Of a stretch of 64,000 bases of DNA, positions 61 to 56,754 are shown in pieces. The translations under genes were made by a program, and so were the position numbers. The notes under the pieces were generated by a model, which saw nothing but the letters and a program-made list of their open reading frames with translations, had not been told where the DNA came from and searched no databases. Source of the DNA: Candidatus Methylomirabilota bacterium (GTDB taxonomy: Bacteria > Methylomirabilota > Methylomirabilia > Rokubacteriales > CSP1-6); assembly GCA_036001065.1 (NCBI GenBank), contig DASYUQ010000115.1, positions 1,297-65,296 on the forward strand. Reading direction: 5' to 3'. How positions within the stretch are numbered: the stretch's first letter is position 1; every line of letters begins with the position of its first letter.

Positions 61-952
61 ACCCCGATCTCACCCCATGCCGTCTTTCTTCCCGAAAATA
101 CTTACCGATTAGAAGGTCGAGACGCCGGCGCGTCGATGGAGGGAACGCGCCGGGGCTGGTGATGACCGCGTTCTCGAGGAGGCTCGGACAGGCGCAGGCG
201 CGGACAGACGCGATGGCCGGGATGGCCTGCCGGAGCACCTCCTTGGCGGTCGCGACGTTCTTGAGGAGGTTCTGGATGACTGCCTCGACGCTGACCGTCG
301 CGTGGGTCTCGTGCCAGACGTCGTAGTCGGTGGCCAGGGCCAGCGTCGCGTAGCAGAGCTCCGCTTCCCGGGCCAGCTTGGCCTCGGGCATGTTCGTCAT
401 GCCGATGACGTCGACGCCCCAGCTCCGGTAGATCCGCGACTCGGCCTGCGTCGAGAACTGCGGTCCCTCGATGCAGATGTAGGTCCCGCCCCGATGGACG
501 GGGGCGCCGGTCTGCCGGGCGGCCTTCTCGAGCGTCGTCGCGAGCTGCGGGCACACGGGCTCGGCCATGCCCACGTGGGCGACGATTCCCTCTCCGAAGA
601 ACGAGGAGACGCGCCGCCTGGTGGCGTCGAAGAACTGGTCGGGGATCACGAGGTCCAGCGGGCGGATCTCCTCTTTCATGCTACCGACGGCGGACACGGA
701 AATGACCCACTCCGCCCCCAGCAACTTGAGGCCCCAGATGTTGGCGCGGAAGTTCAGCTCCGACGGCATGAGGCGATGGCCGCGCCCGTGGCGGGCCAGG
801 AAGATCACCGGCCGCCCGTCCAGGCGCCCACAGCAGTACTCGTCCGACGGCTGGCCGAAGGGCGTGCGCACGCGGCGCCACCGCACGTCGCTGAGCCCCG
901 GCAGCTCGTAGAGGCCGCTGCCGCCGATGATCCCGACCCCCGGCTCGCTCAC
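35..952 (-). CDS. mtnP: S-methyl-5'-thioadenosine phosphorylase (purine nucleoside phosphorylase family)
   Basis: The N-terminus MSEPGVGIIGGSGLYEL and overall length are typical of MTAP/PNP-family enzymes. It overlaps the upstream gene by 4 nt, indicating an operon. Confidence 0.8.
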   Translation of the reverse strand: MSEPGVGIIGGSGLYELPGLSDVRWRRVRTPFGQPSDEYCCGRLDGRPVIFLARHGRGHRLMPSELNFRANIWGLKLLGAEWVISVSAVGSMKEEIRPLDLVIPDQFFDATRRRVSSFFGEGIVAHVGMAEPVCPQLATTLEKAARQTGAPVHRGGTYICIEGPQFSTQAESRIYRSWGVDVIGMTNMPEAKLAREAELCYATLALATDYDVWHETHATVSVEAVIQNLLKNVATAKEVLRQAIPAIASVRACACPSLLENAVITSPGAFPPSTRRRLDLLIGKYFREERRHGVRSGSKRGRGRG

Positions 953-2289
953 AGGTCGGAGGGGGGCTCCAGCTCCCCCCGGCTCCGCGCCCCGTCCACT
1001 CCGGTGACGCGGACCTTGACGAGCCGCCGCATGAGGCCGGCGGGTCCGTCGAAGACGACCTCCACGTAGTTGCCGCTCAGCCCCACCAGGTGGCCGCTCT
1101 CCCGATCGCGCGTCTCCAGCACGAGCACCTCCTGGGTCGTGCCCACGAGCCCCCGGCGAAACGCCAGGCTCTTGGCCTGGCCCAGCCCGCGCAGCTCGCG
1201 GCTACGCGCGGCGACGACGCGCGCGCCCACGTGGGCGCAGAGACGCGCCGCCTCGGTACCCCTGCGGTCCGAGTAGGCGAACACGTGCAGATAGGTGAAC
1301 GGCAGCGCCTCGACCAGCGCGCGCGTCTGGGCGACGTCCGCGTCGGTCTCGCGGGGAAAGCCGACGATCACGTCGGTGCCGAGCCCGAGCGCGGGGATCG
1401 CCGAGGCCAGGCGCTCGACGAGCCGCCCGTACATGCCGGCCGTGTAGGGCCGGCGCATGCGCCGGAGCACCCGATCACTCCCGCTCTGCAGCGGGATGTG
1501 CAGGTGGGGCGCGATCACGGGCGACCCCGTGATCAGGTCGATCAGCTCGGGGGTGAAGTAGGCCGGGAGCACCGACGACAGCCGCACCCAGCGGAGGCCG
1601 GGGACCTCGATCATCTCGCGCAGCAGAGCGGCCAGCGACGCGCGGGGGTAGAGGTCGTGGCCATAGTGGCCCATGTCGACACCGGTGAGCACGACCTCGG
1701 GGTAGCCCGTCTCCACGAGCAGGCGTACCTGATCGAGCACCGCCTTCGGCTCGCGGCTCCGGCTCGCCCCGCGCGCGAAGGGCACGATGCAGAACGCGCA
1801 GCGGTGCTGGCAGCCGTCCTGGATCTTCACGAAGGCTCGCGAGCGCCCGTTGATCCGGGCCAGAGGCGCCGCCGCCAGCGCATGCTCGGTGCCGATGTCG
1901 GAAACGCAGCGGCGCGGCGTCGGGTCGAGGCCCTCGGGGCGGGCCAGGAGCTCCTCGAGCAGCTCGGGCAGGCGGCGCTTGTCGGCATTGCCCACCACGA
2001 GGGCGACGCCGCGCACGCGCGCCACCGCGTCGGGATCGGTCTGAGCCCAGCACCCGGTCACGACGATCCGCGCGCCCGGGCTCCCGCGGACGGCGCGATG
2101 GATCATCTGCCGGTCGGAAAAGTCGGCGCGCGAGGTGACGGTGCAGGTGTTGACGAGGACGACGTCGGCCGGCGCCTCGAGCGGGACGGTTCGAAAGCCG
2201 CGCGCCTCCAGCGCCGCCTGGATCTCCTGCGTGTCCACCTGATTGAGGCGGCAGCCGAGGGTGGCGAACGAGACGGTGCGTCCGGTCAT
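949..2289 (-). CDS. mtaB: Radical-SAM methylthiotransferase, MiaB/MtaB family with C-terminal TRAM domain
   Basis: The listed long ORF 949..3240 is a read-through artefact; the real start is the ATG at 2287-2289 (MTGRTVSFATLGCRLNQVDTQ). It has the MTTase N-domain, the CxxxCxxC radical SAM motif (DGCQHRCAFC) and a TRAM tail. ATGA overlap with rlmN. Confidence 0.8.
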   Translation of the reverse strand: MTGRTVSFATLGCRLNQVDTQEIQAALEARGFRTVPLEAPADVVLVNTCTVTSRADFSDRQMIHRAVRGSPGARIVVTGCWAQTDPDAVARVRGVALVVGNADKRRLPELLEELLARPEGLDPTPRRCVSDIGTEHALAAAPLARINGRSRAFVKIQDGCQHRCAFCIVPFARGASRSREPKAVLDQVRLLVETGYPEVVLTGVDMGHYGHDLYPRASLAALLREMIEVPGLRWVRLSSVLPAYFTPELIDLITGSPVIAPHLHIPLQSGSDRVLRRMRRPYTAGMYGRLVERLASAIPALGLGTDVIVGFPRETDADVAQTRALVEALPFTYLHVFAYSDRRGTEAARLCAHVGARVVAARSRELRGLGQAKSLAFRRGLVGTTQEVLVLETRDRESGHLVGLSGNYVEVVFDGPAGLMRRLVKVRVTGVDGARSRGELEPPSDL

Positions 2290-3437: not shown

Positions 3438-4772
3438 TCAGCCACTTGGAGCGCTTCGCTCATCCCGCGGGCACCCAGGCTGCAAGATGATGTACAGATC
3501 GAGCAAATTGGTGTTCGTGGGGCCGGTGATTACCAGATCTCCGCTGGCCCGGAGGAACGCGTAGGCATCGTTGTCCTTTAGTGACTCCCGCGGATCGTGG
3601 CCCGCGGCCTGACCGCGGGCCACCGTGCCGGCGTCCACCAGCGCGCCGGCCGCGTCGGTCGGCCCGTCGGTCCCATCGGTGCCCGCGGCGAGGGCGACCA
3701 GGCTCTCGTGGGGACGAAGCTCCTGGGCGGCGGTCAGGGCGAATTCCTGACAGCGCCCGCCGCGCCCGCGCCCCCGGACCGTCACGGTCGTTTCCCCGCC
3801 CGCGATCAGACAGGCCGGCGGCCGGAGCCGGCGGGCCCGGGCCAGGAGGTCGCGCGCCACCTCCCGCGCTTCACCCTCGAGCGCGCGAGTGAGGACGTGG
3901 GGATCGAAACCGAGCCGCCGCGCCTCGGCGGCCGCCGCGTCGACGGTCAGCGCGTTGTTACCGATCACGAGGTTCGTGACGCGCTCGAACAGCGGATCGC
4001 CCGGCTTCGGCGTCTCCTCCACCTCGCCGCGGGCGCCGGCCTCGAGCCGCGCCAGCACCGAGACCGGGGCCCGGTCGCGAACGCCGCGCCTGGTCAGCAC
4101 GCCCAGGGCGTCCGCGAAGGTCGTGGGGTCGGGAGCCGTCGGTCCCGACGCGATCACGTCGAGCGGGTCGCCGATGACGTCGGAGAGGATGAGCGTGAGC
4201 ACCATCGCCGGCGCCGCCGCCCGCGCCAGCTGCCCCCCCTTGAGAAGCGACAGATGCTTGCGGACCGCGTTCAGCTCGTTGATGGTCGCGCCGGCGGCGA
4301 GCAGGAGCCTGGTGACCGCCTGCTTCTCTTCCAGGGTCACGGGGGGCGCCGGCGCGGGGGTGAGCGCCGAGCCCCCACCCGAGATCAGAAACATGACGAG
4401 GTCGCCGGCGCCGGCGGTCCGGGCCAGCTCGAGGAGCCGCGCCGCGGCTACCTGGCCGCGACCGTCGGGCACCGGATGGCCGGCCTGCGCCAAACGGATG
4501 CGTCGGGTGGGCGCGGTGTGTCCGTCCTTGACGATGACGAATCCGTCGGCGATGCGGTCGCCCAGCACGCCCTCGACCGCCCGCGCCATCGCCCCGCTGG
4601 CTTTACCGCAGCCCAGCACGAGCAGGCGCCGGAGACGGCCGAGGTCGACGGCTCTCGGCCCGGCGACGAGCTTCGGGCCGTCCACGCGGAGGGCGCGACC
4701 GATGAGGGGCTCGGCGTCGCCGGCGGCCAGCGCGGCCTCGAAGATGGCGCGAGCCGCCTCGCGAGCGGTCAC
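3438..4772 (-). CDS. Glycerate 2-kinase (MOFRL family)
   Basis: Shows MOFRL-family similarity throughout (LVLGCGKASGAM..., ...LIAGGETTVTV..., GTDGTDGPTDAAGA). The start was placed at the GTG at 4770-4772, downstream of the REP-like repeat; the listed ORF extends through the repeat, which is unlikely to be coding. Confidence 0.65.
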   Translation of the reverse strand: MTAREAARAIFEAALAAGDAEPLIGRALRVDGPKLVAGPRAVDLGRLRRLLVLGCGKASGAMARAVEGVLGDRIADGFVIVKDGHTAPTRRIRLAQAGHPVPDGRGQVAAARLLELARTAGAGDLVMFLISGGGSALTPAPAPPVTLEEKQAVTRLLLAAGATINELNAVRKHLSLLKGGQLARAAAPAMVLTLILSDVIGDPLDVIASGPTAPDPTTFADALGVLTRRGVRDRAPVSVLARLEAGARGEVEETPKPGDPLFERVTNLVIGNNALTVDAAAAEARRLGFDPHVLTRALEGEAREVARDLLARARRLRPPACLIAGGETTVTVRGRGRGGRCQEFALTAAQELRPHESLVALAAGTDGTDGPTDAAGALVDAGTVARGQAAGHDPRESLKDNDAYAFLRASGDLVITGPTNTNLLDLYIILQPGCPRDERSAPSG

Positions 4773-4776
4773 ACGT

Positions 4777-4879
4777 CGGAGGGGGCGGACGTTACGGCCC
4801 CCTCGAGATCCATAGTCAGAGGGGGCCTCACGGCCCCCTCCGAACCACCCCGGTGGCGTTGCGCCGGCGAAGCCGGCGC
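4777..4879. repeat. REP/MITE-like composite hairpin repeat, copy a (orientation 1)
   Basis: GGAGGGGGCGGACGTTACGGCCCCCTC hairpin, a second GAGGGGGCC..GGCCCCCTCC hairpin, CGAACCACCCCGGTGG, and a GCGCCGGCGAAGCCGGCGC hairpin. It lies between the aminotransferase and glycerate kinase genes. Confidence 0.65.
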
Positions 4880-4950
4880 CCGAAGCAAGAACGCCTTGAT
4901 CCGATCGAACATCGGGAGCCTCGGCTGCGACGGTTCCGGTCCCGGCGCTC

Positions 4951-6129
4951 TCAGCGAGAGCGGAGCTTCTGCAGCCGCTCCCCCGCTTCCCGAAGCACAT
5001 CGTCGGTCTTCGGAAAGCAGAACCGGATCTTCGTCCGTCCCAGCTCGCGATGGGCGTGGAAGGACGAGCCGGGAACCGTGGCCACCCCCATCTCCTTGAT
5101 GAGGAACATAGCGAAGGTGGCGTCGTCCTCGATGCCGTACCGCTTCAGGAAATGCGCGACGTCGGTGAGGATGTAGTAGGCGCCGTCCGGTTTGTAGACC
5201 ACGAAGCCCGCGCGCTCGAGGTAGCCGAGCAGCAGGTCGCGCTTGGCCTGGTACATCTCGCGGAGCCAGACGTAATAGGCGTCGGGCAGCGCGAGCGCCG
5301 TCACGGCCGCCTCCTGAAACGGGTGCGGCGCCCCCACGGTCACGAAGTCGTGAGCGCGCCGGATGCCGAGGCTGATCTCCGGCGACGCGATGGCGTAGCC
5401 GATGCGCCAGCCCGTCACCGAGTAGGACTTCGAGATTCCCGAGATCGTGATCGTGCGCTCGGCCATGCCCGGCAGGGTGGCGATCGGCGTATGACCGAGC
5501 CCGTCGAAGACGATGTGCTCGTAGATCTCGTCGGTGATGGCCAGCAGGTCGTGCTGGAGGCAGAGATCGGCGATGAGGCCGAGCTCCCGGCGCGAGAAGA
5601 CCTTGCCGGTCGGGTTGTTGGGGCTGTTGAAGACGATGGCCTTCGTGCGCGGCGAGACCGCCCGGGCCAGCCGCTCGGGGTCGAAGCCGAACTCGGGAGG
5701 CTCCAGCGGAACGAAGACGGGCTGAGCACCGGAGATGATGCAGCCGGGGCCGTAGTTTTCGTAGAACGGCTCGAAGATGATCACCTCGTCGCCGGGGTTG
5801 AGCACCGCCAGCAGCGTCGACAGCATCGTCTCCGTCGAGCCGCAGCAGACGGTGATGTGGCGGTCGGGGTCCAGCTCCATCCCGTAAAACTTCCGGTACT
5901 TGTCGGCGATGCCCCGGCGCAGACGCGGCGTGCCCCAGGTGATGGCGTACTGGTGGAAGTCGCCGTCCAGCGCCTTGTGAGCGGCGTCGATCAGCTCTGG
6001 CGGCGGAGGGAAGTTGGGCATGCCCTGGGCCAGGTTGACGCCTCCGTGCTGGCTGACGACGCGCGTCATCTCACGGATCACCGACTCCGTGAAGCCTTGA
6101 ACCCGACGCGAGAGGCGAGATGTCGTCAC
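4951..6129 (-). CDS. PLP-dependent class I/II aminotransferase (methionine or kynurenine aminotransferase-like)
   Basis: Aminotransferase class I fold motifs: NLAQGMPNFPPP, FNSPNNPTGKVF, and a C-terminal SKSYSVTGWRIGY with the Schiff-base Lys. Confidence 0.8.
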   Translation of the reverse strand: MTTSRLSRRVQGFTESVIREMTRVVSQHGGVNLAQGMPNFPPPPELIDAAHKALDGDFHQYAITWGTPRLRRGIADKYRKFYGMELDPDRHITVCCGSTETMLSTLLAVLNPGDEVIIFEPFYENYGPGCIISGAQPVFVPLEPPEFGFDPERLARAVSPRTKAIVFNSPNNPTGKVFSRRELGLIADLCLQHDLLAITDEIYEHIVFDGLGHTPIATLPGMAERTITISGISKSYSVTGWRIGYAIASPEISLGIRRAHDFVTVGAPHPFQEAAVTALALPDAYYVWLREMYQAKRDLLLGYLERAGFVVYKPDGAYYILTDVAHFLKRYGIEDDATFAMFLIKEMGVATVPGSSFHAHRELGRTKIRFCFPKTDDVLREAGERLQKLRSR

Positions 6130-6354
6130 GATGCCCGCGCGGAGGTCGACCCCACGGGGGCGGCGCGCCGCCGTCCCGGGAACGCCAGGTGATGGGGCGA
6201 GGGGCGGCGGGGGTGGGCGGGGCTCTCGGAGACCCGTGTTTCAGGGTATGGTCTCGGCCCCGCGTGCAGAACTGGTCGGCGAGCGATGTCGGACAGCGTG
6301 GTCGACGAGGGCCCCGCCCGCCCCCGCCGCCGGGTCAACGTCTTCACGAAGCGT

Positions 6355-8265: not shown

Positions 8266-10173
8266 GTGGCGTTGTCCCGGCTGGGCCCGCTGCTCCTCGT
8301 GCTCGCCTATGGAGTCGCCTTCGGCGCGGCGGCGTTCGGCCGGACGCTCCCCGCCTTCGACGATCACCCCGGGCAGTTCTACCGCCTGCACCACGTCGTC
8401 GCCCGCGGGTGGGCGCCGTGGACGTGGAATCCGGATTGGTGGGCGGGCTATCCGGAGATGCAGTTCTATCCCCCCGGCTTCTTCTATCTGGGCGCGCTCG
8501 TCGCGCGGGGCTCCTTCGGCCTGATCGACGTCGCCGTCACCTATCAGAGCCTCCTCTGGCTCACCTGGCTCGCGCCCGCCGTGACCACCTTTCTCGCTCT
8601 GGCGCGCCTGCTCGGGAGCGGCTGGCTCGCGCTCCCCGGCGCCTTCATCGCGCTGACGCTCTCGGCCGGCCTCACGAGCGGTGTCGAGGGCGGCGTGCAC
8701 GTCGGCATGCTGCCGGCGCGCCTGGCCTGGGGGCTCCTGCCGGTGGTGCTGATGGCGGCGGCGCCCTGGGCGGAGGACCGGCGCCTTCCGTGGCTCACGG
8801 TACCGCTGCTCGCGGTCGTCGCCCTCACGCATCCGGCTCACGTGCCAGCGGCCGGCGCGCTCGTCGTCCTGGCCGCGTGGTCGGGCCCGGGCTCGCGCCT
8901 CCACCGTCTGGGGGCCGCCGTGGGGGGACTGGTACTCGCCGCCGCGCTGACCGCCTTCTGGGCACTTCCGCTCCTGGCTCGGCTCTCGTACACGCGCGCG
9001 CTCGCTTGGGGACGGCTGGCGCCCCTGGAAACCCTGACGGCCCACCCACTGCTGCTCGGACTGCTCGTCCTCGCGGCTGTCGCGACGCGCCGGGGCCGGT
9101 CGCCCAGCGACACGATCGTCGCTCGGTTCCCCTGGGTCATGATCGCCGTCGTCGCCGCCGATGCCGCCCTGGTCGAGCCACTCGGGCTTCTCTGGCTCCC
9201 CGCTGATCGCGTGGCCGACGGCGCCTGGCTCGCGACCGTCCTGGCGGCGGGGCTCGCGGGCGGCCGCCTGCTCGAGCGCCTCTCGGCGAGGACGGGCGCG
9301 CCCGTGGCCGCGCTGGCGCTCGCCGCCACCGCCGTCGCCATCGCGCTGTCGCTCCCCGGCGGAACGCTCACGCTCTGGCCGCGCGCCTCCCAGTGGCCTT
9401 CGTACGCGGCGGTCGAGCGCGGGATGCGTCTAGGCGCGCTGTGGGCGGCGCTGCGCGGCGCCCCCCCCGGGCGCGTGCTCTTCGTCCGGTCGGGCGTGCC
9501 GCTCGCCTACGGCGGCGAGTGGTGGCGGCCTCACACCCACGTCACCGCGCTCACGCCGCTCCGCGCCGGGCGCGCCATCGTCCACGGGACCTTCACCCAT
9601 CCCTCCCCTGTCGCCGCGCTGGTGTACCGCGGCGAGGCCGGCCCCGGGGCGATCACGACGCTGGCCGAGCGGCTCGACGGCCACCGGCTGTTCGGCCGGC
9701 CGCTCGACGGCCTCGACGCGGCGACGTTCGACTTCTTCGCCGAACGCCTCGGGATCGCCGCCGTCGTCGCGCTCGACGAAGACGCCGGGAGTCTCCGATT
9801 CCTGGACGACAACCCGGCGCTCGCCAGACGCCCGCCGCTGGGACCGTTCCTGGTCTACGAGCGCCGAGCGCCCACCACGCTTCCGATCCGGATGGCGCCC
9901 GACCGCTGGACCATCACCCTCTCCGGCCAGCCCGGCGAGTGGGTCTCGACGCGCGTCACCTACTACCCCCTCTGGCGCGCCGAGCGCGGCGGGGCCCCGC
10001 TGGCGACGCGTCGCGGGAGCATCGGAGACCTGGAAGCGCGGCTGGACGCCGGGGTCGGCCCCGTTGAGCTCGTCTACGCCGCCGGCGCCCCGGAGGCGGC
10101 CGGAGTGCTCGTGAGCGCGCTGGGGTTCATCGCCTGGTCGGTGGGCTGGGGGCTGCGGAGGCGCGGCGACTAG
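8266..10173 (+). CDS. Large polytopic integral membrane protein (DUF2298/YYY-like, putative glycosyl- or arabinosyl-transferase-like)
   Basis: 635 aa with many hydrophobic segments and a conserved HHVVARGWAPWTWNPDWWAGYPEMQFYPPGF segment typical of this membrane-protein family. Confidence 0.5.
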   Translation: MALSRLGPLLLVLAYGVAFGAAAFGRTLPAFDDHPGQFYRLHHVVARGWAPWTWNPDWWAGYPEMQFYPPGFFYLGALVARGSFGLIDVAVTYQSLLWLTWLAPAVTTFLALARLLGSGWLALPGAFIALTLSAGLTSGVEGGVHVGMLPARLAWGLLPVVLMAAAPWAEDRRLPWLTVPLLAVVALTHPAHVPAAGALVVLAAWSGPGSRLHRLGAAVGGLVLAAALTAFWALPLLARLSYTRALAWGRLAPLETLTAHPLLLGLLVLAAVATRRGRSPSDTIVARFPWVMIAVVAADAALVEPLGLLWLPADRVADGAWLATVLAAGLAGGRLLERLSARTGAPVAALALAATAVAIALSLPGGTLTLWPRASQWPSYAAVERGMRLGALWAALRGAPPGRVLFVRSGVPLAYGGEWWRPHTHVTALTPLRAGRAIVHGTFTHPSPVAALVYRGEAGPGAITTLAERLDGHRLFGRPLDGLDAATFDFFAERLGIAAVVALDEDAGSLRFLDDNPALARRPPLGPFLVYERRAPTTLPIRMAPDRWTITLSGQPGEWVSTRVTYYPLWRAERGGAPLATRRGSIGDLEARLDAGVGPVELVYAAGAPEAAGVLVSALGFIAWSVGWGLRRRGD

Positions 10174-10176
10174 GTC

Positions 10177-10207
10177 CCTCGGAGGGGGGCTTCGCCCCCC
10201 TTCCGAG
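10177..10207. repeat. REP-like hairpin repeat, copy e (A2 subtype only)
   Basis: CTCGGAGGGGGGCTTCGCCCCCCTTCCGAG palindrome. The core is identical to the copy at 51129-51158. Confidence 0.6.
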
Positions 10208-10271
10208 ATTCCTATTCGGAGGAGGCCTCGAGGACGAACGCCGAGGAGAGCAGACCGTAGAGGCGCAGGCG

Positions 10272-11636
10272 CTACTCCGGACCGATCGTGTGGGTGAAGA
10301 GCACGGCGCCGTCCTCGTCGATCAAGCGCACCGTGAGGTGCGGCGCTTCGATCGTCACCGCGCCGAAGTTGTTCACGCCCCCCCGGGCGAAGAGCGAGCG
10401 CGGGTTGAGCGCGGCGTCCAGCGGCCGCGGCCGGCCCGGCGTCGCCGACAGCGGGCCGGCGATGAACTCGTGAAACGAGAACTCCGGCGTCGGGTGGTGC
10501 CGGATCAGCTCCCCGTGATGCACGTCCGCGGCGAGGAAGACGAGGTTCTTCACCCCGCGCTGGCGGAACGCGTTCAAGATCGCGTCCCGCTCCACGGCGA
10601 AGCCCGTCCCGTTCTCCTCCGGAATGCCCCAGACGGTGGCGTTCGACCAGGCGTCCCGAGAGTCCCGCCCGGTGGGCACGGACAGTGGCACGCTGGAGAC
10701 GACGACCTTCCAGGTGGCCGTCGAGGCGGTCACCCCGTCGATCAGCCAGCGCCGCTGCCGGGACCCCAGCATCGTCTTGGCCGGACCGTCGGGCTCGCTG
10801 TTGTCGCTCCGGTACTGGCGGGTGTCGAGGATGAAGACCTCCAGCAGGCGACCCCAGCGGAACTGGCGGTAGAGGCGGGTGGGCTCGTCGGCGGGGGGAA
10901 CGACGGGCCAGTACTCGACGAACGCCTGGCGACCCCGCGGCATCAGGGGCTCGGTCGGGCCCGCGAAGTTGTTGCGCACCTCGTGGTCGTCCCAGATCGC
11001 GTGCACGGACGTCTGGCCGAGGAACGCGCTCAGGGCCGGGTCCTCGCGGTTGTACCGGTGTTTGCGGCGGAACTGGTCCAGCGTCCGGGCGACGAAATCG
11101 CCGCCGGGCGCCACGCCGGGCCCGCTGCAGCGGTGATCGGCGTAGGCCGTGTCGCCGACGAACAGGAAGAAGTCGGGGCGCGCGCCCGCCATTGCCGAGA
11201 AGACCCGGTACCCGGTGTCGACCGGGCGGCAGAACCGTCCGCCGCCCAGGTCGCCGCCCCACACGAACGTCACCCGCACCGGATCGTCCGGCGCCGGCGC
11301 CGTGACGAACTCGCCGGCGGCGGCGCCCCCGGCGCTCCGCGCCCGATAAGCGTAGCGCGTCGCCGGGCGCAGTCCGGCCAGTCGCACCTTCCCGGTGAGA
11401 TCACTGCGGCGCGTAACCCGCAGGCTGGCGCTCTGGGCGGGCCCCGCGTCGGCCGGACCGTAGTCGACGACGATCTCCCCCTCGGCGACGCCCCGCACCC
11501 ACACGACCACCGTCGTCGGCGTCACGTCGCCGACGGCGAGCAGCAGACGCTCGGCGGCCGGCGCCGGGACGCACAGGAAGAGGAGGAGCAGGCCGACGAA
11601 CGCGGTCAGCGCGCGGAGGCGGCGCTCACGGAACAA
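10272..11636 (-). CDS. phoD: Alkaline phosphatase D family phosphodiesterase (PhoD) with signal peptide
   Basis: N-terminal signal (RRLRALTAFVGLLLLFL), a PhoD-like metallophosphatase core (GDTAYADH, WDDHEVRNNF, FLAADVHHGE). Confidence 0.75.
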   Translation of the reverse strand: MFRERRLRALTAFVGLLLLFLCVPAPAAERLLLAVGDVTPTTVVVWVRGVAEGEIVVDYGPADAGPAQSASLRVTRRSDLTGKVRLAGLRPATRYAYRARSAGGAAAGEFVTAPAPDDPVRVTFVWGGDLGGGRFCRPVDTGYRVFSAMAGARPDFFLFVGDTAYADHRCSGPGVAPGGDFVARTLDQFRRKHRYNREDPALSAFLGQTSVHAIWDDHEVRNNFAGPTEPLMPRGRQAFVEYWPVVPPADEPTRLYRQFRWGRLLEVFILDTRQYRSDNSEPDGPAKTMLGSRQRRWLIDGVTASTATWKVVVSSVPLSVPTGRDSRDAWSNATVWGIPEENGTGFAVERDAILNAFRQRGVKNLVFLAADVHHGELIRHHPTPEFSFHEFIAGPLSATPGRPRPLDAALNPRSLFARGGVNNFGAVTIEAPHLTVRLIDEDGAVLFTHTIGPE

Positions 11637-12399: not shown

Positions 12400-12610
12400 G
12401 CGTCCGCTCCCGCAGCCGGAGACGACGACCAGCGCGATGAAAGTGAGAAATCTGATTCGCGTAGGAAAACCCTTTCCTAGCCCGCTCCAAAATTCTTACA
12501 CGAGGTGCGCGAAGAGTGGAAGAGGATTTCACAGGGCCTGGTGCAAAAGCTACAGATGCGAAACCCCCACACGGGTTCCGGCTTGAGAATCCCGGAGATA
12601 GACGCGGGGG

Positions 12611-12638
12611 GGGAGACCGGCGGGGGCGCCGGTCTCCC
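12611..12638. other. Perfect 12-bp GC hairpin (GGGAGACCGGCG-GGGG-CGCCGGTCTCCC) in a long structured intergenic region
   Basis: Seen directly in the sequence. It lies about 130 nt downstream of the SDR gene on the minus strand. Confidence 0.5.
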
Positions 12639-12670
12639 GGCGCCTAGGTGCGTGTCGGAGGAGCCGTGGT

Positions 12671-12764
12671 TCGAGCGCCGGCTTCGCCGGCGCAATCAGT
12701 TCTGGGGGAGGCTCGGAGGGGGCCGTCGCGCCCTGTGGGCGCGCCTGTGAAGTCGCCCCCTCCG
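12671..12764. repeat. REP/MITE-like composite repeat, copy g (orientation 2)
   Basis: TCGAGCGCCGGCTTCGCCGGCGCAATC...CTGGGGGAGGCTCGGAGGGGGCCG...CCCCCTCCG. It is homologous to copies c and f over about 55 bp. Confidence 0.6.
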
Positions 12765-12768
12765 ACGA

Positions 12769-13680
12769 CTAGACGAGCGGATCGTAGTTGAAGTACTGCC
12801 CGGAGGTCTCGAGCGGCACGAGGTGGTGCTGGAGCGTGCCCGGGAACATGTCGGCCAGGCGCTCGACCGTCCAGCCCTCGGCGTGGTGGATGCGCATGAT
12901 CGGCCGCATGTGGCCGAACAGCATGATCTCCTTGCCTCGCACACCGAAGACCTGGCCGGTGATCTCCTTGGCGTGATCGGAGGCGAGAAAGACGGCCACG
13001 GGCGCGATGTGGGCGGGCGAGAGCTTCTTGATCTTCTCCACGCGCGCCTTCTGGACCTCGGTCTCGGTGGGGATGGTGCCGATCATGCGCGTCCACGCGA
13101 ATGGCGAGATGCAGTTCGCGGTGACGTTGTAGCGCGCCATGTCCAGCGCCGTGACCTTGGTCAGGCCGACGATGCCCAGCTTGGCCGCGGCGTAGTTGGC
13201 CTGGCCCACGTTGCCGACGAGGCCGGAGGTCGAGGTCATGTTGATGATGCGACCGGAGCGCTGCTCCCGCATGCGGGGCGTGGCGGCCCGGGTGACGGCG
13301 AACGCCCCCTTCAGGTGCGTGTCGATGACGCCGTCCCACTCCTCCTCGGTCATGTTGAAGACCATGCGATCGCGCAGGATGCCCGCGTTGTTGACGACGA
13401 TGTCGACGCGGCCGAAGGCGTCGACCGCGGTCTCGACGATCCGCTGGCCGCCGGCCATCGTGGCCACCGAGTCGTAGTTGGCGACCGCCCGCCCGCCGGC
13501 CCCTTTGATCTCCCCGACCACCTCATCGGCCGGCATCGGCGATCCCCCCTGCCCCGACTCCGTGCCGCCGATGTCGTTGACCACGACCAGCGCGCCCAGC
13601 CGGGCCATCAGCAGCGCGATCTCGCGGCCGATGCCACGTCCGGCGCCGGTCACCACCGCCACCTTGTCCCTGAGGATCAT
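12769..13680 (-). CDS. Short-chain dehydrogenase/reductase (SDR), hydroxyacyl-CoA dehydrogenase / MFE-2-like
   Basis: TGAGRGIG Rossmann motif, NNAG, and the S...YxxxK catalytic triad (YAAAK). Confidence 0.8.
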   Translation of the reverse strand: MILRDKVAVVTGAGRGIGREIALLMARLGALVVVNDIGGTESGQGGSPMPADEVVGEIKGAGGRAVANYDSVATMAGGQRIVETAVDAFGRVDIVVNNAGILRDRMVFNMTEEEWDGVIDTHLKGAFAVTRAATPRMREQRSGRIINMTSTSGLVGNVGQANYAAAKLGIVGLTKVTALDMARYNVTANCISPFAWTRMIGTIPTETEVQKARVEKIKKLSPAHIAPVAVFLASDHAKEITGQVFGVRGKEIMLFGHMRPIMRIHHAEGWTVERLADMFPGTLQHHLVPLETSGQYFNYDPLV

Positions 13681-13756
13681 GCGAGCCCCCCGCGCTGCCG
13701 AGTGAAAAGCGGAGCAGACGATAGCACGAACGGCGCCGCTCCGGCCGCCTCGCTGA

Positions 13757-13847
13757 GTCGGAGGGGGCAGACGTTACGGCCCCCTCCCGAACCACCCCAA
13801 TGGTTGCGCGGGCGAAGCCCGCGCTCGAACGGTGGTTCCTCCGACGC
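13757..13847. repeat. REP/MITE-like composite repeat, copy b (orientation 1, most complete)
   Basis: GTCGGAGGGGGCAGACGTTACGGCCCCCTCC-CGAACCACCCCAATGG-TTGCGCGGGCGAAGCCCGCGC-TCGAAC-GGTGGTTCCTCCGAC, with nested outer inverted repeats GTCGGAGG/CCTCCGAC and GAACCACC/GGTGGTTC. Confidence 0.7.
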
Positions 13848-13851
13848 GCGC

Positions 13852-14652
13852 CTAGTGTCTCCGGGCGTCCAGCGCGGCGACGTAGGCGGCGCCGAAGACG
13901 AACACGACCGCCGAGTAGTACACGAACATCACAAGCGCGCCCAGCACGCCCAGCGGCCCGTAGATCTGGTCGTAGAGCCCGACCTCGCGGATGTAGAGGC
14001 GGAAGAGCTGCTTGGCCACCTCCCACAGCAGGCTCGTCAGCACGGCCCCGGCGAGCGCCGCTCCCACCCGCACCCGCCGGTAGGGGACGAACCGGTACCC
14101 CAGGTAGAACATCAGGGCCGAAAAGCCGACGCTGACGACGATCGCGACGGCGTGAATCCACTGGCTCGGCGTCTGAATCGGCTCCAGGACGAAGGTTTGA
14201 AACCACTGCGCCATCCACGTCGCGACCGTGGCCCCGAAGAGGAGCCCGGCCAGCAGCAGCACCATGCCGGCGTCGACGAAGAAGTTGCGGAGGGCGTTGT
14301 GGGAGCCGCGAAGCCCCAGCATCCGGTGCATCACCAGGCGGGCGGCCCCGAAGAGCGACGTCGAGAAGAGCACCAGGATTCCGGTCCCCACCAGGCCCGA
14401 GGCCGTGCGGGTCTGGACGATGCGCAGCAGTACGCGCGTGAGCTCGCGCTCGTAGACCGGGAAGTTGCGCGCGAGCTGCCCGACCACCTCCCGGGCGGCA
14501 TCCTCCGTCGAGAGGACGAAGCCGACCGCGGAGACGCCCAGGAGCGTGACCGGGATCATGCAGACCAGAAAGAAGAACGCGAGCCCGGCGGCCAGGAAGA
14601 AGCCGTCGTTGGTGTAGAACCGATAGACCGCGCCGCGAAGCCCGCCGAGCAC
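13852..14652 (-). CDS. YihY/BrkB family inner-membrane protein
   Basis: Multi-TM protein (LAAGLAFFFLVCMIPV...). It is the C-terminal part of the long artefactual ORF 13852..15330. A GTG start was chosen at 14650-14652, just downstream of the SDR stop. Confidence 0.6.
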   Translation of the reverse strand: MLGGLRGAVYRFYTNDGFFLAAGLAFFFLVCMIPVTLLGVSAVGFVLSTEDAAREVVGQLARNFPVYERELTRVLLRIVQTRTASGLVGTGILVLFSTSLFGAARLVMHRMLGLRGSHNALRNFFVDAGMVLLLAGLLFGATVATWMAQWFQTFVLEPIQTPSQWIHAVAIVVSVGFSALMFYLGYRFVPYRRVRVGAALAGAVLTSLLWEVAKQLFRLYIREVGLYDQIYGPLGVLGALVMFVYYSAVVFVFGAAYVAALDARRH

Positions 14653-14657
14653 CGGTG

Positions 14658-15437
14658 TCAGAGGATGCCGCGCACGAGCCCGCCGTCGACCTGGATCGTG
14701 ACGCCGGTGATGTAGGAGGCCCGCTCCGAGGCCAGGAAGACGACCACGTTGGCGAACTCCTCCGGGCTGCCGATCCGGCGCAGCGGGATCTCGGCACTGC
14801 TCTTCTTGACGTATTCCTCCGTGGGGAGGCCGGCCTGCTTGGCGCCGCCCAGGAAGCGATCGGTCATGATGCGGCCCGGGCATACGGTGTTGATCAGGAT
14901 GTTGTCCTTTCCCAGATCGGCCGACAGCGTCTTGACCAGTCCGGCCACGCCGGGCCGGACCGCGTTGGACAGCAGCAACCCCTCCACCGGCTGCTTGACC
15001 GACACCGACTGGATCGTGAGGATGCGGCCCCACTTCCGCTGCCGCATCGAGGGCACGACCTCGCGGATCAGCCGTACGACCGACAGGAGCGACACCTCGA
15101 AGGCTCCAAACCACTGCTCGTCGGTCATGTCGGCGAGGCCGCCCCGGGGCGGACCCCCGCAGTTGGCCACCAGGATGTCGACGGCCCCGAAGGCCTCCGT
15201 CGTGCGCGCCACTAGCGCCGTGACGTCGGCCGCCTTGGTCACGTCGGCGCGCATGGCCAGGACCTCGGCGCCGGTCTTGGCGCGGACCTCGTCGGCCGCC
15301 GTCTTCAGATCTTGGTCGCCGCGCGCGCACATCATGACTCGCGCGCCTTCCGCCGCCAGGCCGAGGGCGCAGGCCTTGCCCATCCCCTTGCTCGCCGCCG
15401 TCACCAGCGCCGCCTTGCCCTTGAGTCCGAGGTCCAT
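14658..15437 (-). CDS. SDR family oxidoreductase (FabG-like)
   Basis: GKAALVTAASKGMG Rossmann motif, NCGG, and S...Y..K residues. The start was chosen at MDLGLKGK inside the listed ORF. Confidence 0.75.
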   Translation of the reverse strand: MDLGLKGKAALVTAASKGMGKACALGLAAEGARVMMCARGDQDLKTAADEVRAKTGAEVLAMRADVTKAADVTALVARTTEAFGAVDILVANCGGPPRGGLADMTDEQWFGAFEVSLLSVVRLIREVVPSMRQRKWGRILTIQSVSVKQPVEGLLLSNAVRPGVAGLVKTLSADLGKDNILINTVCPGRIMTDRFLGGAKQAGLPTEEYVKKSSAEIPLRRIGSPEEFANVVVFLASERASYITGVTIQVDGGLVRGIL

Positions 15438-36477: not shown

Positions 36478-36905
36478 CGGGCGGCGACGGCGACGCCGTC
36501 GAGGCGCTGCACGCTGGTGGCGTTACCGACGGGCTGCCCGCGGTGCCGCCGACGCGGCCGCGGGCAGCGCGGGCCGTGGCGGCGGCGGGCCGCCGGGCCG
36601 ATGAGCTGATCGCGGAAGAGCCGCCCGGGTCTGGGACCCTGATTCCGAAGTCTTCCCCGGCTGGTCCTTCCCGCACGCGCCCTCCCGCCTGATGATCAAG
36701 AAGATCGTTTGAAGCTCCGGCCGACGCCCTGGCCCACGCTGTCGGGAATCGTATCCGACCGGGCAGCGGGAATGGGCAGCCCGGCGGGTGGCCCTCCGAG
36801 ACCCGTGTCTCAGGGGATCGACCCCAACCCGTGTAGAAAGAAGGCGCCGAGCCGGCTGTGGCTAGCGTGGTCGAGGAAGCCACCCGCCGGGCCGCCCCCA
36901 TCGCG

Positions 36906-40798: not shown

Positions 40799-40928
40799 TC
40801 AGTCAGCGATGCTATCACCGCGCGGCGCGTCCGGGCAGTCTGTGAAGTGAATTTCCTAGAGACGAGAAGAAATTACCGCGAGGGCCGCGGCCAGAGTACT
40901 TGTTACACTCCGGCCCCCCGCCGCTTCG

Positions 40929-40999
40929 AGCCCGGGCTTCGCCCGCGCAATCCTTGCTGGGGGAGGTCTCGGAGGGGGCGGACGTTACGGCCCCCTCCG
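40929..40999. repeat. REP/MITE-like composite repeat, copy c (orientation 2)
   Basis: GCCCGGGCTTCGCCCGCGCAATCC...GGGGGAGGTCTCGGAGGGGGCGGACGTTACGGCCCCCTCC. It lies between the HlyD gene and the histidine-kinase operon. Confidence 0.65.
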
Positions 41000-41005
41000 T
41001 CCGAG

Positions 41006-50018: not shown

Positions 50019-51127
50019 GGCTCGCGCCTCTCGATGAACCGGTCAGGGAGGAAGTCGTTGAGTGAGAGCGAGGGGCGCCCCGTGAGGATCCACTCGGTCA
50101 TCACCTTCGCCGTGATGGGGGCCAGGAGGATGCCGTTACGGAAGTGCGCCGTCGCGATCCAGAGCCCCTCGAGACCGGGCCAGGGGCCCAGGATGGGGAG
50201 ATTGTCCGGGGCCCAGGGCCGGAACCCGTACCACGTCCGGTTGATCGCCAGCCCGGCGAGCGCCGGCACCAGCTCGATGGCCGCGTTGAGGAGTCCCGCG
50301 ATCCCCATGGCCGTCACCGCCCGATGAAAACCCACGCGCTCGACGGTGGCCCCGACCAGCAGCTCGCCCGACGGCCGCGGGACGAGATAGACCTCGTCGC
50401 CGTGGACGCAGTGCGTGAGCACCGGCGGGACGTGGGCGAGCGCGATCATCTGTCCGCGCCGGGGCTCCACCGGGAGGCGCCCGCCGAACGAGGCCACCAG
50501 CGGCGCCGTCCAGGCGCCGGCGGCGAGGACGATCACGTCGCCGTCGAACCGCTCTCCATCGGCGACGACCGCCCGGGCGTGACCGTCCTCGACGACGAGC
50601 CGGGAGACGCCGCAGCCGGCGATCAGGGCGACGCCGGCGGCCACGGCGGCCTGGGCGTAGGCGACGACGAGCCGCTGGTTGTTCACCCAGTGGTCGCCGC
50701 GCACGAACATCGCGCCGCTCACCTTGGCCGACAGCGCCGGCTCCCGGGCGTGCACCTCGCCGCTGTCCCAGGCCTCGATGCCGAACTCGCGACCGAGCGC
50801 CTCCTGCGCGCGGCTCTGGGTCTCGCGCACGTCGTGCACGGTAGCGAGGGGATAGATCGTTCCGCGGGTGACGTACTCGACGTCGATGCCCGTGCGCTCC
50901 CTGAGCTCGTGGACCACGGCGGGATAGAGCCGCCAGCTTGTCACCGCGAGCTCGCGAAAGCCGGTCGCCGAGGACTCGCCGAGCGGCGCCAGCAGTCCGG
51001 CGGCGGCGCCCGAGGCCTCCGCGCCCGGGGTGGCCCGCTCCAGGAGCACCACCGCGCACCCGGCCTTGGCCAGCTCCCAGGCCGTGGCACAGCCGATCAC
51101 GCCGCCACCGACGACGACGACTTTCAC
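50015..51127 (-). CDS. thiO: FAD-dependent glycine oxidase ThiO
   Basis: N-terminal dinucleotide-binding motif (VVVVGGGVIGCATAWELAKAG). The start is the GTG at 51125-51127 within the artefactual longer ORF. It sits in the thi operon. Confidence 0.75.
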   Translation of the reverse strand: MKVVVVGGGVIGCATAWELAKAGCAVVLLERATPGAEASGAAAGLLAPLGESSATGFRELAVTSWRLYPAVVHELRERTGIDVEYVTRGTIYPLATVHDVRETQSRAQEALGREFGIEAWDSGEVHAREPALSAKVSGAMFVRGDHWVNNQRLVVAYAQAAVAAGVALIAGCGVSRLVVEDGHARAVVADGERFDGDVIVLAAGAWTAPLVASFGGRLPVEPRRGQMIALAHVPPVLTHCVHGDEVYLVPRPSGELLVGATVERVGFHRAVTAMGIAGLLNAAIELVPALAGLAINRTWYGFRPWAPDNLPILGPWPGLEGLWIATAHFRNGILLAPITAKVMTEWILTGRPSLSLNDFLPDRFIERREP

Positions 51128-51128
51128 T

Positions 51129-51204
51129 TCACTCGGAGGGGGGCTTCGCCCCCCTTCCGATTCCTCCCCCCAGGAGTTGCGCGGGCAAAGCCCGCGCTCG
51201 AACA
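51129..51204. repeat. REP/MITE-like composite repeat, copy d (orientation 1)
   Basis: CTCGGAGGGGGGCTTCGCCCCCCTTCCGA...GTTGCGCGGGCAAAGCCCGCGCTCGAAC. It lies between thiE and thiO. Confidence 0.65.
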
Positions 51205-51239
51205 GCGGCACGCCGACACGTGGGGCGCCATCCGTGGCA

Positions 51240-51863
51240 TCAGATGGCGGCCAGGGCGTCGAGGAAGCGCCGGGTCGCGTCGGCCGGCGAGGAGGCGGCC
51301 AGGATGGCCGAGATGGCGGCGACGCCGGTCGCTCCCGATCGCCGGACGTCACGCACCCGCTCGGGAGTGATCCCGCCGATCGCGATCAGGGGGATGTCGA
51401 GCGCGCTGGCCACGCGCTCGAGGGCGCCGAGCCCCTGGGGCGGGCCGTAGTGGCGCTTGGAGGGCGTGTCGTAGATCGGCCCGAAGACGACCCAGTCGGC
51501 GCCCGCCTCCGCGGCGGCGATCGCCTCCTCGCGCGAGTGCACCGAGGCGCCGATGCCGAGCCGCTTGTCGGCGATCGCCCGGATGTCGGCGACGGGCAGC
51601 GAGGTCGACGTCCGCTGGACGCCGTCGGCACCGACGGCCAGCGCCACGTCCAGGCGGTCGTTGACGATCAGGAGGGCGCCGCGGGCGGAAGTCAGGGCGC
51701 GGAGGGCGCGGCCCAGACCCGCCAGGGCCTCGGCACCCAGGTCCTTCTCGCGGAGCTGGACCGCGGGAAGCCCGGCGGCCAGGCAGTCACGAACGACGGC
51801 GATGAGATCCCGCCCGCCGGTCTGAGCGCGGTCCGTGACGAGGCAGAGTCTCAGCTGGTCCAA
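51240..51863 (-). CDS. thiE: Thiamine-phosphate synthase ThiE
   Basis: ThiE fold motifs (LCLVTDR..., VQLREKD, IAIGGI). The start was placed at TTG 51861-51863 ([11 protein letters not shown]). Confidence 0.75.
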
Positions 51864-52851: not shown

Positions 52852-52895
52852 CCAAAAACCAAACGGCCGCTCCCAGGCTGGGCGCGGCCGTCTCC
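52852..52895 (-). terminator. Putative riboswitch expression-platform intrinsic terminator in the thiS leader
   Basis: On the minus strand, CGGCCGC[GCCCAGCCUGGGA]GCGGCCG is followed by UUUGGUUUUUGGG, between the TPP aptamer and the thiS start. Confidence 0.5.
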
Positions 52896-52900
52896 GTCGG

Positions 52901-52985
52901 CCGTGTTCCCTTCGCTGGTATTACCCAGAATCAGGTTCGAGGGGTCCCGGGCCGCACCCGGTTCTCAGGAATCCTCCCCCCACGG
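52901..52985 (-). ncRNA. TPP (thiamine pyrophosphate) riboswitch, THI element
   Basis: Minus-strand sequence GGGGGAGGAUUCCUGAGAACCGGGUGCGGCCCGGGACCCCUCGAACCUGAUUCUGGGUAAUACCAGCGAAGGGAA contains the conserved CUGAGA, ACCC, GAACCUGAU and CUGG-UAAUACCAGCGAAGGGAA blocks of the THI-box. Confidence 0.9.
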
Positions 52986-53232
52986 CGACGGTCGAAGTAT
53001 ACCACTGCGTTCGCTGTGTGGCGACGAGGGCTCGATTGCAACATCCCGATGGGTACGCCGGGGTCGGCGCCAGCATTGTCTCCCCTCTCCTCGTCGGGGA
53101 AACCCGCGACCGCCTGACGTGTTTACCGGCAATCAGTTCGCGCGCGACACGCACCCGGATACGGATAAGGCTCGAGACGGGTAATCCCGGCGGAGGCTCG
53201 CTCGCATCCGTCGATCTCGGGCGGCTAGACCG

Positions 53233-55976: not shown

Positions 55977-56652
55977 CGCGGAGCGCCGGGCGGTTGTCTT
56001 GCTGAGTGGTGGCCTCGATTCGACGACGGCGATGGCCGTCGCTCGCGCGGAGGGCTTCGCCTGCTACGCCCTCACCATCGACTACGGCCAGCGCCATCGC
56101 CTCGAGCTGGAGGCCGCCCGGCGAGTCGCGGCCGCCCTGGGCGCCCGCGATCACGCGACGCTGGCGATCGATCTCCGGAGCTTCGGAGGCTCCGCGCTGA
56201 CGGCGGATCTGCCGCTCCCCACCCGGCGCGATCCGCGCGAGATGACCGACATTCCGGTGACGTACGTCCCCGCTCGGAACACGGTCTTCCTCTCGCTTGC
56301 GCTCGCGTGGGCAGAGACGCTGGGCGCGGAGAACATCGTCATCGGGGTAAATTTTTTGGATTACTCCGGCTATCCCGATTGCCGGCCCGAGTTCATCGGG
56401 GCGTTCGAGCGGATGGCGAACCTCGCCACCAAGGCCGGCGCCGAGGGCCGGAGCCACTTCCGCATCCACACGCCGCTCATCCACTTGAGCAAGGCGGACA
56501 TCGTGCGCCGCGCCGTCGAGCTCGGCGTCGATCTCGCGCTGACCTGGAGCTGCTACGACCCGTGTCAGGCACGCCCGTGCGGCGTCTGTGACGCGTGCGT
56601 CCTCCGGCGCAAAGGCTTCGCGGAGGTGGGGATCCCCGACCCCCTCGGCTAG
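55969..56652 (+). CDS. queC: 7-cyano-7-deazaguanine synthase QueC
   Basis: PP-loop SGGLDS and the C-terminal zinc motif CxxC...CxxC ([16 protein letters not shown]). Confidence 0.9.
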
Positions 56653-56675
56653 GCGCGCATCGGACTCACCACCGC

Positions 56676-56748
56676 TCGAGCGCGGGCTTCGCCCGCGCAA
56701 TCTCTTCCCGGGGGAGGCCTCGGACGGGGCCGTCGAGGCCCCCTCCGA
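56676..56748. repeat. REP/MITE-like composite repeat, copy f (orientation 2)
   Basis: TCGAGCGCGGGCTTCGCCCGCGCAATCTCTTCCCGGGGGAGGCCTCGGACGGGGCCGTCGAGGCCCCCTCC. It lies between convergent queC and the YyaL-family gene. Confidence 0.65.
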
Positions 56749-56754
56749 CGGTGG

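Follow-up and report, generated by a model that had tools for sequence, protein, structure and literature searches.

The window analysed here, a stretch of 64,000 nucleotides (nt) from contig DASYUQ010000115.1 of a Candidatus Methylomirabilota bacterium, carries seven copies (a to g) of a short GC-rich repeat, in which two hairpins, A and B, are joined by a C-rich linker. The copies stand at gene boundaries, one of them inside a thi operon (Table 1). The host lineage, the Rokubacteria, consists of abundant uncultured soil bacteria with large genomes. An earlier note, made from the letters of the window alone, had taken the copies for a mobile or recombining repeat akin to repetitive extragenic palindromes (REPs) and miniature inverted-repeat transposable elements (MITEs), and not for plain terminators. 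This description is borne out by the lineage-wide occurrence of the family, by empty orthologous sites in relatives, by different variants at individual sites and by module swaps. The family is real and of the kind of REPs, bacterial interspersed mosaic elements (BIMEs) and MITEs, with unusual habits of its own; it was not described before in the literature searched, which held nothing on repeats of Rokubacteria.

Architecture of the repeat unit

The base composition of the window is about 71% GC, so that chance matches to GC-rich motifs were a concern, which was checked by shuffles. The repeat motif is present far beyond chance: the B module (27 nt, up to three mismatches) has five matches in the window, against 0.00 expected in shuffled sequence, and the A hairpin pattern has three, against 0.06 expected. 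Each of the seven loci was read, and the modules named in the earlier note are present at all of them. The unit itself is longer than had been claimed, as it includes the C-rich linker and, in copies c, d and g, a tail. It runs from the A hairpin (28–31 nt; consensus TCGGAGGGGG-loop-CCCCCT(T)CCGA) through the linker (CCTCCCCC, replaced by CCACCCC in copies a and d) to the B hairpin (19–27 nt; consensus GCGCSGGC-RAA-GCCSGCGC) and an optional tail with a CTAG end, which in copies c, d and g reads GGTGGnnCCTCCGAC-RCGCNCC-TAG. The CCTCCGAC of the tail is an 8-bp inverted repeat of GTCGGAGG at the 5' foot of A. This repeat is confined to tail-bearing copies and lies 0–7 nt (A side) and 7–26 nt (tail side) from the triplet described below. 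In copy d, GAACCACC pairs with GGTGGTTC around B.

The orientations listed in the earlier note were partly right: copies a and d read A→B and copies c and g are reversed, but copy f, which had been placed among the reversed ones, reads A→B on the plus strand, and copy b contains A2 only. Copy e, which had been left out of that list, is a reverse complement like c and g. Among 152 B units in 893 kb, 105 have an A hairpin within 140 nt upstream and none has one downstream only. The order A→linker→B is thus fixed, and the modules are not freely shuffled. Within this order the family forms a BIME-type mosaic, in which individual copies combine B with an A hairpin of subtype A1 or A2, with one of two linkers and, optionally, with an inserted hairpin and a tail.

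An alignment of 81 simple copies contains the two hairpins with 18 base pairs, four of which show compensatory changes: from T-A to C-G at the foot of A and from G-C to C-G both at its top and in B, the change in B being partly presupposed by the search pattern. The columns of the linker, whose offset from A is 1–2 nt in 88 of 104 copies, rank among the best conserved of this alignment. A G·T pair of the A2 subtype, found in 50 of the 81 aligned copies, makes this subtype fold slightly better on the A→B strand. Positions −4 to −1 before the A stem are loosely T/A, A/T, C/A and C, and the stem begins with TCGG, which pairs with CCGA. Predicted folds of whole units range from −46 to −61 kcal/mol, values that in a 71% GC background correspond to z-scores of only −1.5 to −3.9.

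Empty and occupied orthologous sites

The window was compared with loci from other genomes and metagenomes, which are given L-numbers. Syntenic relatives were gathered via homologues of ThiO and the SDR protein; the closest in DNA are L126 (98% identical) and L121 to L123 (about 93%). Every copy of the window has at least one empty counterpart among L124 and L127 to L133 (Table 1), so that units have been gained and lost at orthologous gene-boundary sites. At site d, L127, L129 and L130 carry other variants in the opposite orientation, which argues for independent insertions at the same boundary. The asymmetry of gene distances on the A side and the B side had raised the possibility of polar insertion; this was rejected, because the empty sites reveal that the inserted DNA reaches well past B, in non-conserved tails.

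Table 1. The seven copies of the repeat and other features of the window. Empty sites are the orthologous boundaries that lack the element.
Feature	Position	Strand	Context	Composition	Empty site in
Copy a	4773..4950	+	whole insert between aminotransferase stop (TCA, 4951-4953) and glycerate-kinase-like GTG start (4770-4772)	A1 4776-4806; second A1 4817-4843; CCACCCC-type linker; diverged B 4859-4883; 67-nt non-family tail	L127, L129, L130 (two genes overlap as GTGA or TTGA)
Copy b	10174..10271	+	between convergent genes; directly after TAG stop of 635-aa gene; PhoD-like stop CTA at 10272	A2 10178-10207, then A1-arm remnant	L129
Copy c	12648..12768	-	SDR stop	CGA; A1 with long structured loop 12713-12765; linker CCTCCCCC; B 12669-12695; tail ..CCTCCGACACGCACC; CTAG flanks both ends (12644-12647, 12769-12772)	L127, L128, L129, L131 (SDR protein of L131 95% identical); occupied in L126
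Copy d	13753..13855	+	terminal CTAG provides stop of BrkB-like gene (13852-13854)	CTGAG; A1 13758-13789 (loop AGACGTTAC); linker GAACCACCCC; B 13804-13830; tail GGTGGTTCCTCCGACGCGCGC; then CTAG	L128
Copy e	40912..41005	-	HlyD-like stop TAG	CTCGGA; A1 40969-41000; linker CCTCCCCC; B 40924-40950; GCGGCGGGGGGCC; without tail module	L124, L133
Copy f	51128..51239	+	inside thi operon; thiE stop TCA 51240-51242, thiO GTG start 51125-51127	TTCAC; A2 51133-51160; TT; CCTCCCCCC 51163-51171; B 51177-51203; 36-nt tail	L124 (3-nt spacer), L132 (ATGA overlap)
Copy g	56653..56754	-	entire spacer of convergent queC (stop TAG 56650-56652) and DsbH-like gene (stop CTA 56755-56757)	CCACCG; A1 56720-56748; linker; B 56674-56700; tail GGTGGTGAGTCCGATGCGCGCC	L124 (convergent genes overlap by 14 nt)
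Open reading frame inflated by copy a	3438..5000
TPP riboswitch	52889-52990	-	upstream of thiS-thiG-thiE-[copy f]-thiO operon	Rfam RF00059, 56.7 bits
Inverted repeat	6203-6331		upstream of aminotransferase gene	32-nt arms, 88% complementary, 65 nt apart
Recurrence of inverted-repeat motif	36790-36834			45-nt motif, 76% identity
AT-rich motif	~12400-12560		upstream of M1-like gene	TGTGAAATCCTCTTCCAC...GTGTAAGAAT
Non-family hairpin	12600-12640		adjoins copy c	GGGGGGGAGACCGGCGGGGGCGCCGGTCTCCC
AT-rich motif	40860-40911		upstream of histidine-kinase gene	GTGTAACAAGTAC...GGTAATTTCTTCTC

Gene boundaries and probable target triplets

Gene context was taken from a crude gene caller based on GC content at third codon positions. 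The A end lies 1–7 nt past a stop codon in 45 of 50 cases and 0–8 nt from a reverse-strand start codon in 22 of 30. Between co-directional genes, A follows the stop in 26 copies and precedes the downstream start in 18 (44 in all). The location at gene 3' ends or between convergent genes given in the earlier note does not fit copies a and f, whose A hairpins lie 3 and 5 nt upstream of start codons (GTG at 4772 and GTG at 51127, respectively). Both starts are backed by Pfam, as the DUF4147 domain begins at residue 7 of the glycerate-kinase-like protein and the DAO domain at residue 2 of ThiO. The inflation of an open reading frame by copy a, which had also been pointed out, was confirmed (Table 1). 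The thi operon that contains copy f, between thiE and thiO, is preceded by a thiamine pyrophosphate (TPP) riboswitch, so that the copy must be transcribed as part of a regulated polycistronic unit. In L124, where the thiE-thiO junction is free of the element (9997-10003), the called thiO start is ATC, 3 nt past the thiE TGA (TGAACCATCAAA), which suggests either termination-reinitiation coupling or a miscalled start. Outside protein-coding genes, copies in L092, L065 and L005 lie 5 nt past the encoded CCA end of tRNA genes or adjoin a tRNA gene.

At gene boundaries, the A end is 0–8 nt away from a stop-type triplet, which is either a same-strand stop or TCA, the TGA of an ATGA or GTGA junction on the other strand. 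An exact comparison of filled and empty sites showed the insert to be flanked on either side by TGA at sites a and f and by TAG at site c, where the empty site has a single triplet in each case. At sites b, d and g, each end carries TAG or CTAG. Of 103 copies, 70 have TNA or CTAG no more than 10 nt from the A end, compared with about 25% at control positions (p=6e-13), and TAG and TAA together are 3.3-fold enriched among stops adjacent to A (p=8e-4). Starts that adjoin the A hairpin have an adenine next after the start codon, and so read ATGA or GTGA, in 13 of 18 cases against a background of 29% (p=2e-4); insertion into the TGA shared by overlapping start and stop codons would produce this pattern. 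These data make a target duplication of 3 bp, sometimes CTAG, and hence integration through a staggered cut, probable.

A longer duplication of 9–12 bp was considered, because GCGCGCCTAGCC stands on both sides of copy g and a similar case is found in L118. A test with eight copies had given p=0.03. In 53 tail-bearing copies, the 7 nt before the triplet matched no better than across loci (p=0.25), and the 9–12 nt repeats at copy g and in L118 are therefore not general.

Distribution across Rokubacteria

A scan for the B pattern with one genome per species returned at least 120 stretches, almost all from metagenome-assembled genomes (MAGs) of Candidatus Rokubacteria, Rokuibacteriota or Methylomirabilota, so that the motif is not confined to a few loci. 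At these loci, the 100 nt upstream of B match the A hairpin and linker almost to the letter. The combination of B and tail was found in at least 120 stretches in metagenomes. Copy density depends on the lineage, with three copies in the window and in L123 compared with none in the syntenic 21 kb of L124 and L133. Extrapolated from seven copies per 64 kb, a genome would hold several hundred.

A search of IMG/VR viral contigs for A2 plus linker gave no match and thus no link to phages. At the gathering threshold, Rfam recognised only the TPP riboswitch in the window and no family for the element, and a permissive scan of 12500-14000 yielded one chance-level match (E=0.99). Complete A-linker-B units were also found on contigs binned as Deferrimicrobiaceae, Alphaproteobacteria and Acidobacteria (L008, L011, L039), which may be mis-binned contigs of Rokubacteria or may reflect horizontal spread. 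A B-like match without A in L031 (Rubellimicrobium) is probably due to chance.

Related or associated repeats occur as well. A sister variant of the A hairpin (TTGGAGGGGG...CCCCCTCCAA followed by CCTCCCC) is present in L125 (11066-11130), L129 (9869), L130 (9868) and L127 (9938), at the same gene boundaries in more distant Rokubacteria; it is sometimes arranged in tandem, and in L127 a 40-nt unit is present three times beside it. Another family of palindromic repeats (..AGGCTGMTGAAAAAGGCCCATCTGCGGCG..) was seen in L021, L024 (~3600-3780), L057, L081 and L095, and in several MAGs its two arms flank a nested A-linker-B element.

Turnover and recombination of existing copies

Once in place, copies diversify: modules are exchanged, hairpin loops are inverted, A is duplicated in tandem, and deletions terminate within the element. 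The window and L126 share all sites, but identity of the element at site d falls to 74.6%, because its A and linker module belongs to a different subtype; we infer that modules were exchanged between copies at this site. At site e, the A loop of the window has the opposite orientation to that of its orthologue in L123 and L121, and at site g the copies of the window and L122 are 70% identical within flanks of about 90%. At site b (10174-10271 in the window, compared with 13535-15120 in L126), the window lacks about 1.45 kb that is present in L126, comprising a second PhoD-like gene, B' and part of A1', with a breakpoint inside the element, whereas L126 retains the full B'-A1'-A2' unit and the PhoD paralogue. 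Synteny with L126 stops exactly at copy a (~4950 in the window, 20320 in L126). Together, the module swaps, the loop inversion, the deletion and the synteny break indicate that the element is also a substrate for recombination. Thirteen pairs of elements in inverted orientation, which might flank a transposase, were identified, and the pair in the window flanks the SDR gene.

Other mobile elements were observed next to the family. In L126, a MITE of 82 nt that is unrelated to the family, bounded by perfect 12-bp terminal inverted repeats (TGCCGTTCCAAC/GTTGGAACGGCA) and showing a CTAG duplication, is inserted three times in 20 kb (9847-9928, 11038-11119 and 15038-15119); the window lacks it. 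Each insertion is in a CTAG at the edge of an A-linker-B element. In L131, an IS110-family transposase gene (173-1279, minus strand; PF01548 and PF02371) abuts the tail end of the site-d copy (~1366-1371; ..GTCTAG|GCGCGGGTCCGAGG..) and stands in place of the BrkB-like gene; only this one case was seen, and it lies where the contig ends. Since REP sequences are known targets of IS110/IS1111 elements, the family may offer landing sites to other mobile DNA.

Neighbouring sequence features

Two AT-rich motifs near copies c and e (Table 1) are kept in syntenic relatives. They look like promoter or operator sites, beside which, and not into which, the elements were inserted. The strong hairpin that adjoins copy c is separate from the family; it is kept in L126 and diverged in L131. 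Within the inverted repeat upstream of the aminotransferase gene, a 45-nt motif (GGCTCTCGGAGACCCGTGTTTCAGGG..) recurs elsewhere in the window.

Interpretation and alternative explanations

We consider it probable (about 0.6) that the repeats are a lineage-specific family of small, non-autonomous elements of Rokubacteria, which combine a REP/BIME-like architecture with MITE-like behaviour. On this explanation, a trans-acting enzyme would integrate the element via a staggered cut that duplicates 3 (or 4) bp, and so short a duplication would allow the element to split overlapping ATGA or GTGA junctions without destroying either gene. The element would be co-transcribed with its neighbours, and its RNA could fold into two hairpins of great stability, which may function at 3' ends or in stabilisation. 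The reverse orientation may be tolerated directly upstream of starts because of GGGGGAGG at the 5' foot of the A hairpin.

Several observations weigh against this explanation. The left and right triplets agree in 14 of 53 tail-bearing copies, more often than in permutations (p=0.015), but this concordance is statistically weak, and selection could have preserved or produced many of the right-hand triplets for their role as stops or starts. The ends are not sharp, as triplet and A are 0 to 7 nt apart, non-conserved tails of up to about 70 nt follow B, and the tail that completes the 8-bp terminal inverted repeat is present in a minority of copies only. With regard to current activity, the window and L126 do not differ in presence or absence of the family at 98% identity, a level at which the unrelated MITE has three new insertions. 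No transposase could be linked to the family: no Y1/HUH open reading frame was found in about 1 Mb, in a search that did not extend to DDE genes. Finally, a host function could explain equally well why the sequence is so highly conserved across deep lineages.

The last point leads to the alternative that the repeat is an RNA element selected by the host, i.e., a 3'-end signal, a stability or processing signal or a protein-binding site, which spread through its function and not through selfish mobility. The sequence is indeed nearly invariant across MAGs whose ThiO proteins are only 70–80% identical, the A end keeps close to stops and, in L092 and L065, to tRNA genes, the predicted folds are stable, copy b ends like a terminator, and the conserved linker could be bound by a protein. 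Nevertheless, we regard this alternative as unlikely, since orthologous genes in relatives manage without the element, its orientation to transcription is mixed (26 copies after a stop, 18 before a start), the fold z-scores are modest for the background and Rfam holds no match. A role as a simple intrinsic terminator was rejected for all copies but b: the place of a U tract is taken by the C-rich linker after A and by CGAAC after B, a terminator-like T-rich tail is present in copy b alone, a terminator scan of copies a to d called only b, and an efficient terminator would be polar at copy f, inside an operon. That the family is a true REP system, in which a single-copy REP-associated tyrosine transposase (RAYT; HUH/Y1) elsewhere in the genome recognises the hairpins as single-stranded DNA and the hairpins persist vertically as in REPIN-RAYT systems (a REPIN being two inverted copies of one REP with a short spacer between them), would account for the conservation across the lineage, the lack of sharp terminal repeats, the better fold of A2 on one strand, and the extragenic, GC-rich hairpins of 20–30 nt very near stop codons, which are typical of REPs (PMC3733652). 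It is nonetheless improbable that the family belongs to REPs in the strict sense. No unpaired GTAG or CGTC tag stands beside the stem, the element joins two unrelated hairpins head to tail, always in one order, and is not an inverted doublet of a single unit, and the triplet duplication at sites a, c and f is not expected from the 'peel and paste' mechanism of HUH enzymes. The earlier note had seen no RAYT or IS200-type gene nearby; none was found in the window, and tblastn with E. coli RAYT, IS200 and IS608 TnpA queries gave nothing above 25 bits in the window and 125 loci (~1 Mb).

A different function would arise in the B'→A' orientation, in which the element could act as a portable ribosome-binding site: the hairpin would bring GGGGGGAGG, 1–2 nt on its 5' side, and a start codon, 3–8 nt on its 3' side, to a normal spacing, and the terminal base together with the duplicated TGA would rebuild a GTG or ATG start when an ATGA or GTGA overlap is split. 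The Pfam-supported starts of thiO and the glycerate-kinase-like gene at copies f and a, the ATGA, GTGA or TTGA overlaps and 3-nt spacers at element-free junctions, the linker offset of 1–2 nt in most copies and the 18 element-adjacent starts, which have no other Shine-Dalgarno sequence in the 0–8 nt spacer and mostly read ATGA or GTGA, are all consistent with this function. Precedents for hairpins that bridge a Shine-Dalgarno sequence and its start are the phage T4 genes 38 and 25. As the same tight spacing is found after stops in the other orientation, it more likely reflects the insertion site than a translational function, and we regard a portable ribosome-binding site as quite unlikely. 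A broader proposal, which we judge distinctly improbable, is that of a vertically persistent, lineage-wide replicator that would integrate specifically into stop triplets, among them the TGA common to both genes of an ATGA or GTGA overlap, rebuild stop and start through the 3-bp duplication and its terminal base, carry its own Shine-Dalgarno sequence, kept at working distance by a clamp hairpin, and thereby uncouple gene pairs. Extremely improbable is a structural or regulatory role of the 3' arm of A and the linker (CCCCCCTTCC-GANN-CCTCCCCCC) as a homopyrimidine mirror repeat that forms a Py·Pu-Py triplex (H-DNA or an RNA triple helix). The linker is an exact parallel Hoogsteen partner of the purine arm GGAGGGGGG and strongly conserved, and the G-run of the arm tracks the C-run of the linker, with 30 copies at 5/5, 36 at 6/6 and unequal lengths in 18 and some others. 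However, this match follows the split into A1 and A2 subfamilies and may go back to a single historical event, position-matched substitutions, for example in L047 and L083, break the triplex rules, copies a and d carry a different linker, and eight consecutive C+·G-C triplets are unfavourable at neutral pH. The triplex was therefore rejected.

Comparison with known repeat systems

REPs are imperfect, GC-rich palindromes of 20–40 bp, scattered outside genes in many copies. They have an unpaired GTAG or CGTC tetranucleotide at one end of the stem, and between co-directional genes they lie close to the upstream stop and at a variable distance from the next start (PMC3733652). The Rokubacteria family shares with the REPs and BIMEs of enterobacteria and pseudomonads the short, imperfect palindromes in high extragenic copy number, the proximity to stop codons, which are sometimes supplied as TAG, the mosaics of hairpins and conserved linkers and the likely transcription; like CGTC-type REPs, it has no known transposase (Di Nocera et al. 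2013, PMC3733652). It differs in lacking the tag, in its two unrelated hairpins, in the A hairpins at downstream starts, in the apparent duplication of the stop triplet at insertion and in its host, and the likeness to BIMEs is one of architecture alone. In REPIN-RAYT systems, a conserved population of short repeats reportedly persists for a long time within one bacterial lineage, as put forward by Bertels and Rainey. The persistence of the present family would similarly imply a conserved trans-acting protein, although the REPIN doublet is absent and no RAYT was found in the DNA searched.

MITEs with short TA-containing duplications include the Correia elements (TA) and derivatives of the IS5 family (CTAG/YTAR or TNA). 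Insertion polymorphism, T-N-A or CTAG at both ends, the short GTCGGAGG/CCTCCGAC repeat of tail-bearing copies and the location at gene boundaries resemble such MITEs, though terminal repeats and target duplication do so only in part, whereas the ragged ends, the variable spacers, the absence of one inverted repeat from most copies and the lack of a visible parent insertion sequence do not; the 82-nt element of L126, with its perfect repeats and clean duplication, is a textbook case by comparison. The BOX elements of Streptococcus pneumoniae are composed of boxA, boxB and boxC modules. They are alike in their ordered modules of variable number, their location between genes and their stable RNA structures, but they belong to another host and are probably unrelated in sequence.

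Implications

A defined consensus of the element would improve gene calling in 70% GC genomes, in which it inflates open reading frames and hides true starts, and the presence or absence of individual copies provides markers for tracking at the strain level. The repeats also explain assembly breaks and rearrangements, such as the synteny break at copy a and the deletion at copy b, and the IS110-family gene and the CTAG-targeting MITE that adjoin copies in relatives point to possible landing pads. If the proposal of a lineage-wide replicator were true, coupled gene pairs such as thiE-thiO and aminotransferase-glycerate kinase would become separately initiated across the operons of Rokubacteria. 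Moreover, if start-proximal copies do serve as ribosome-binding sites, the family would offer a natural example of translational coupling rewired by mobile DNA.

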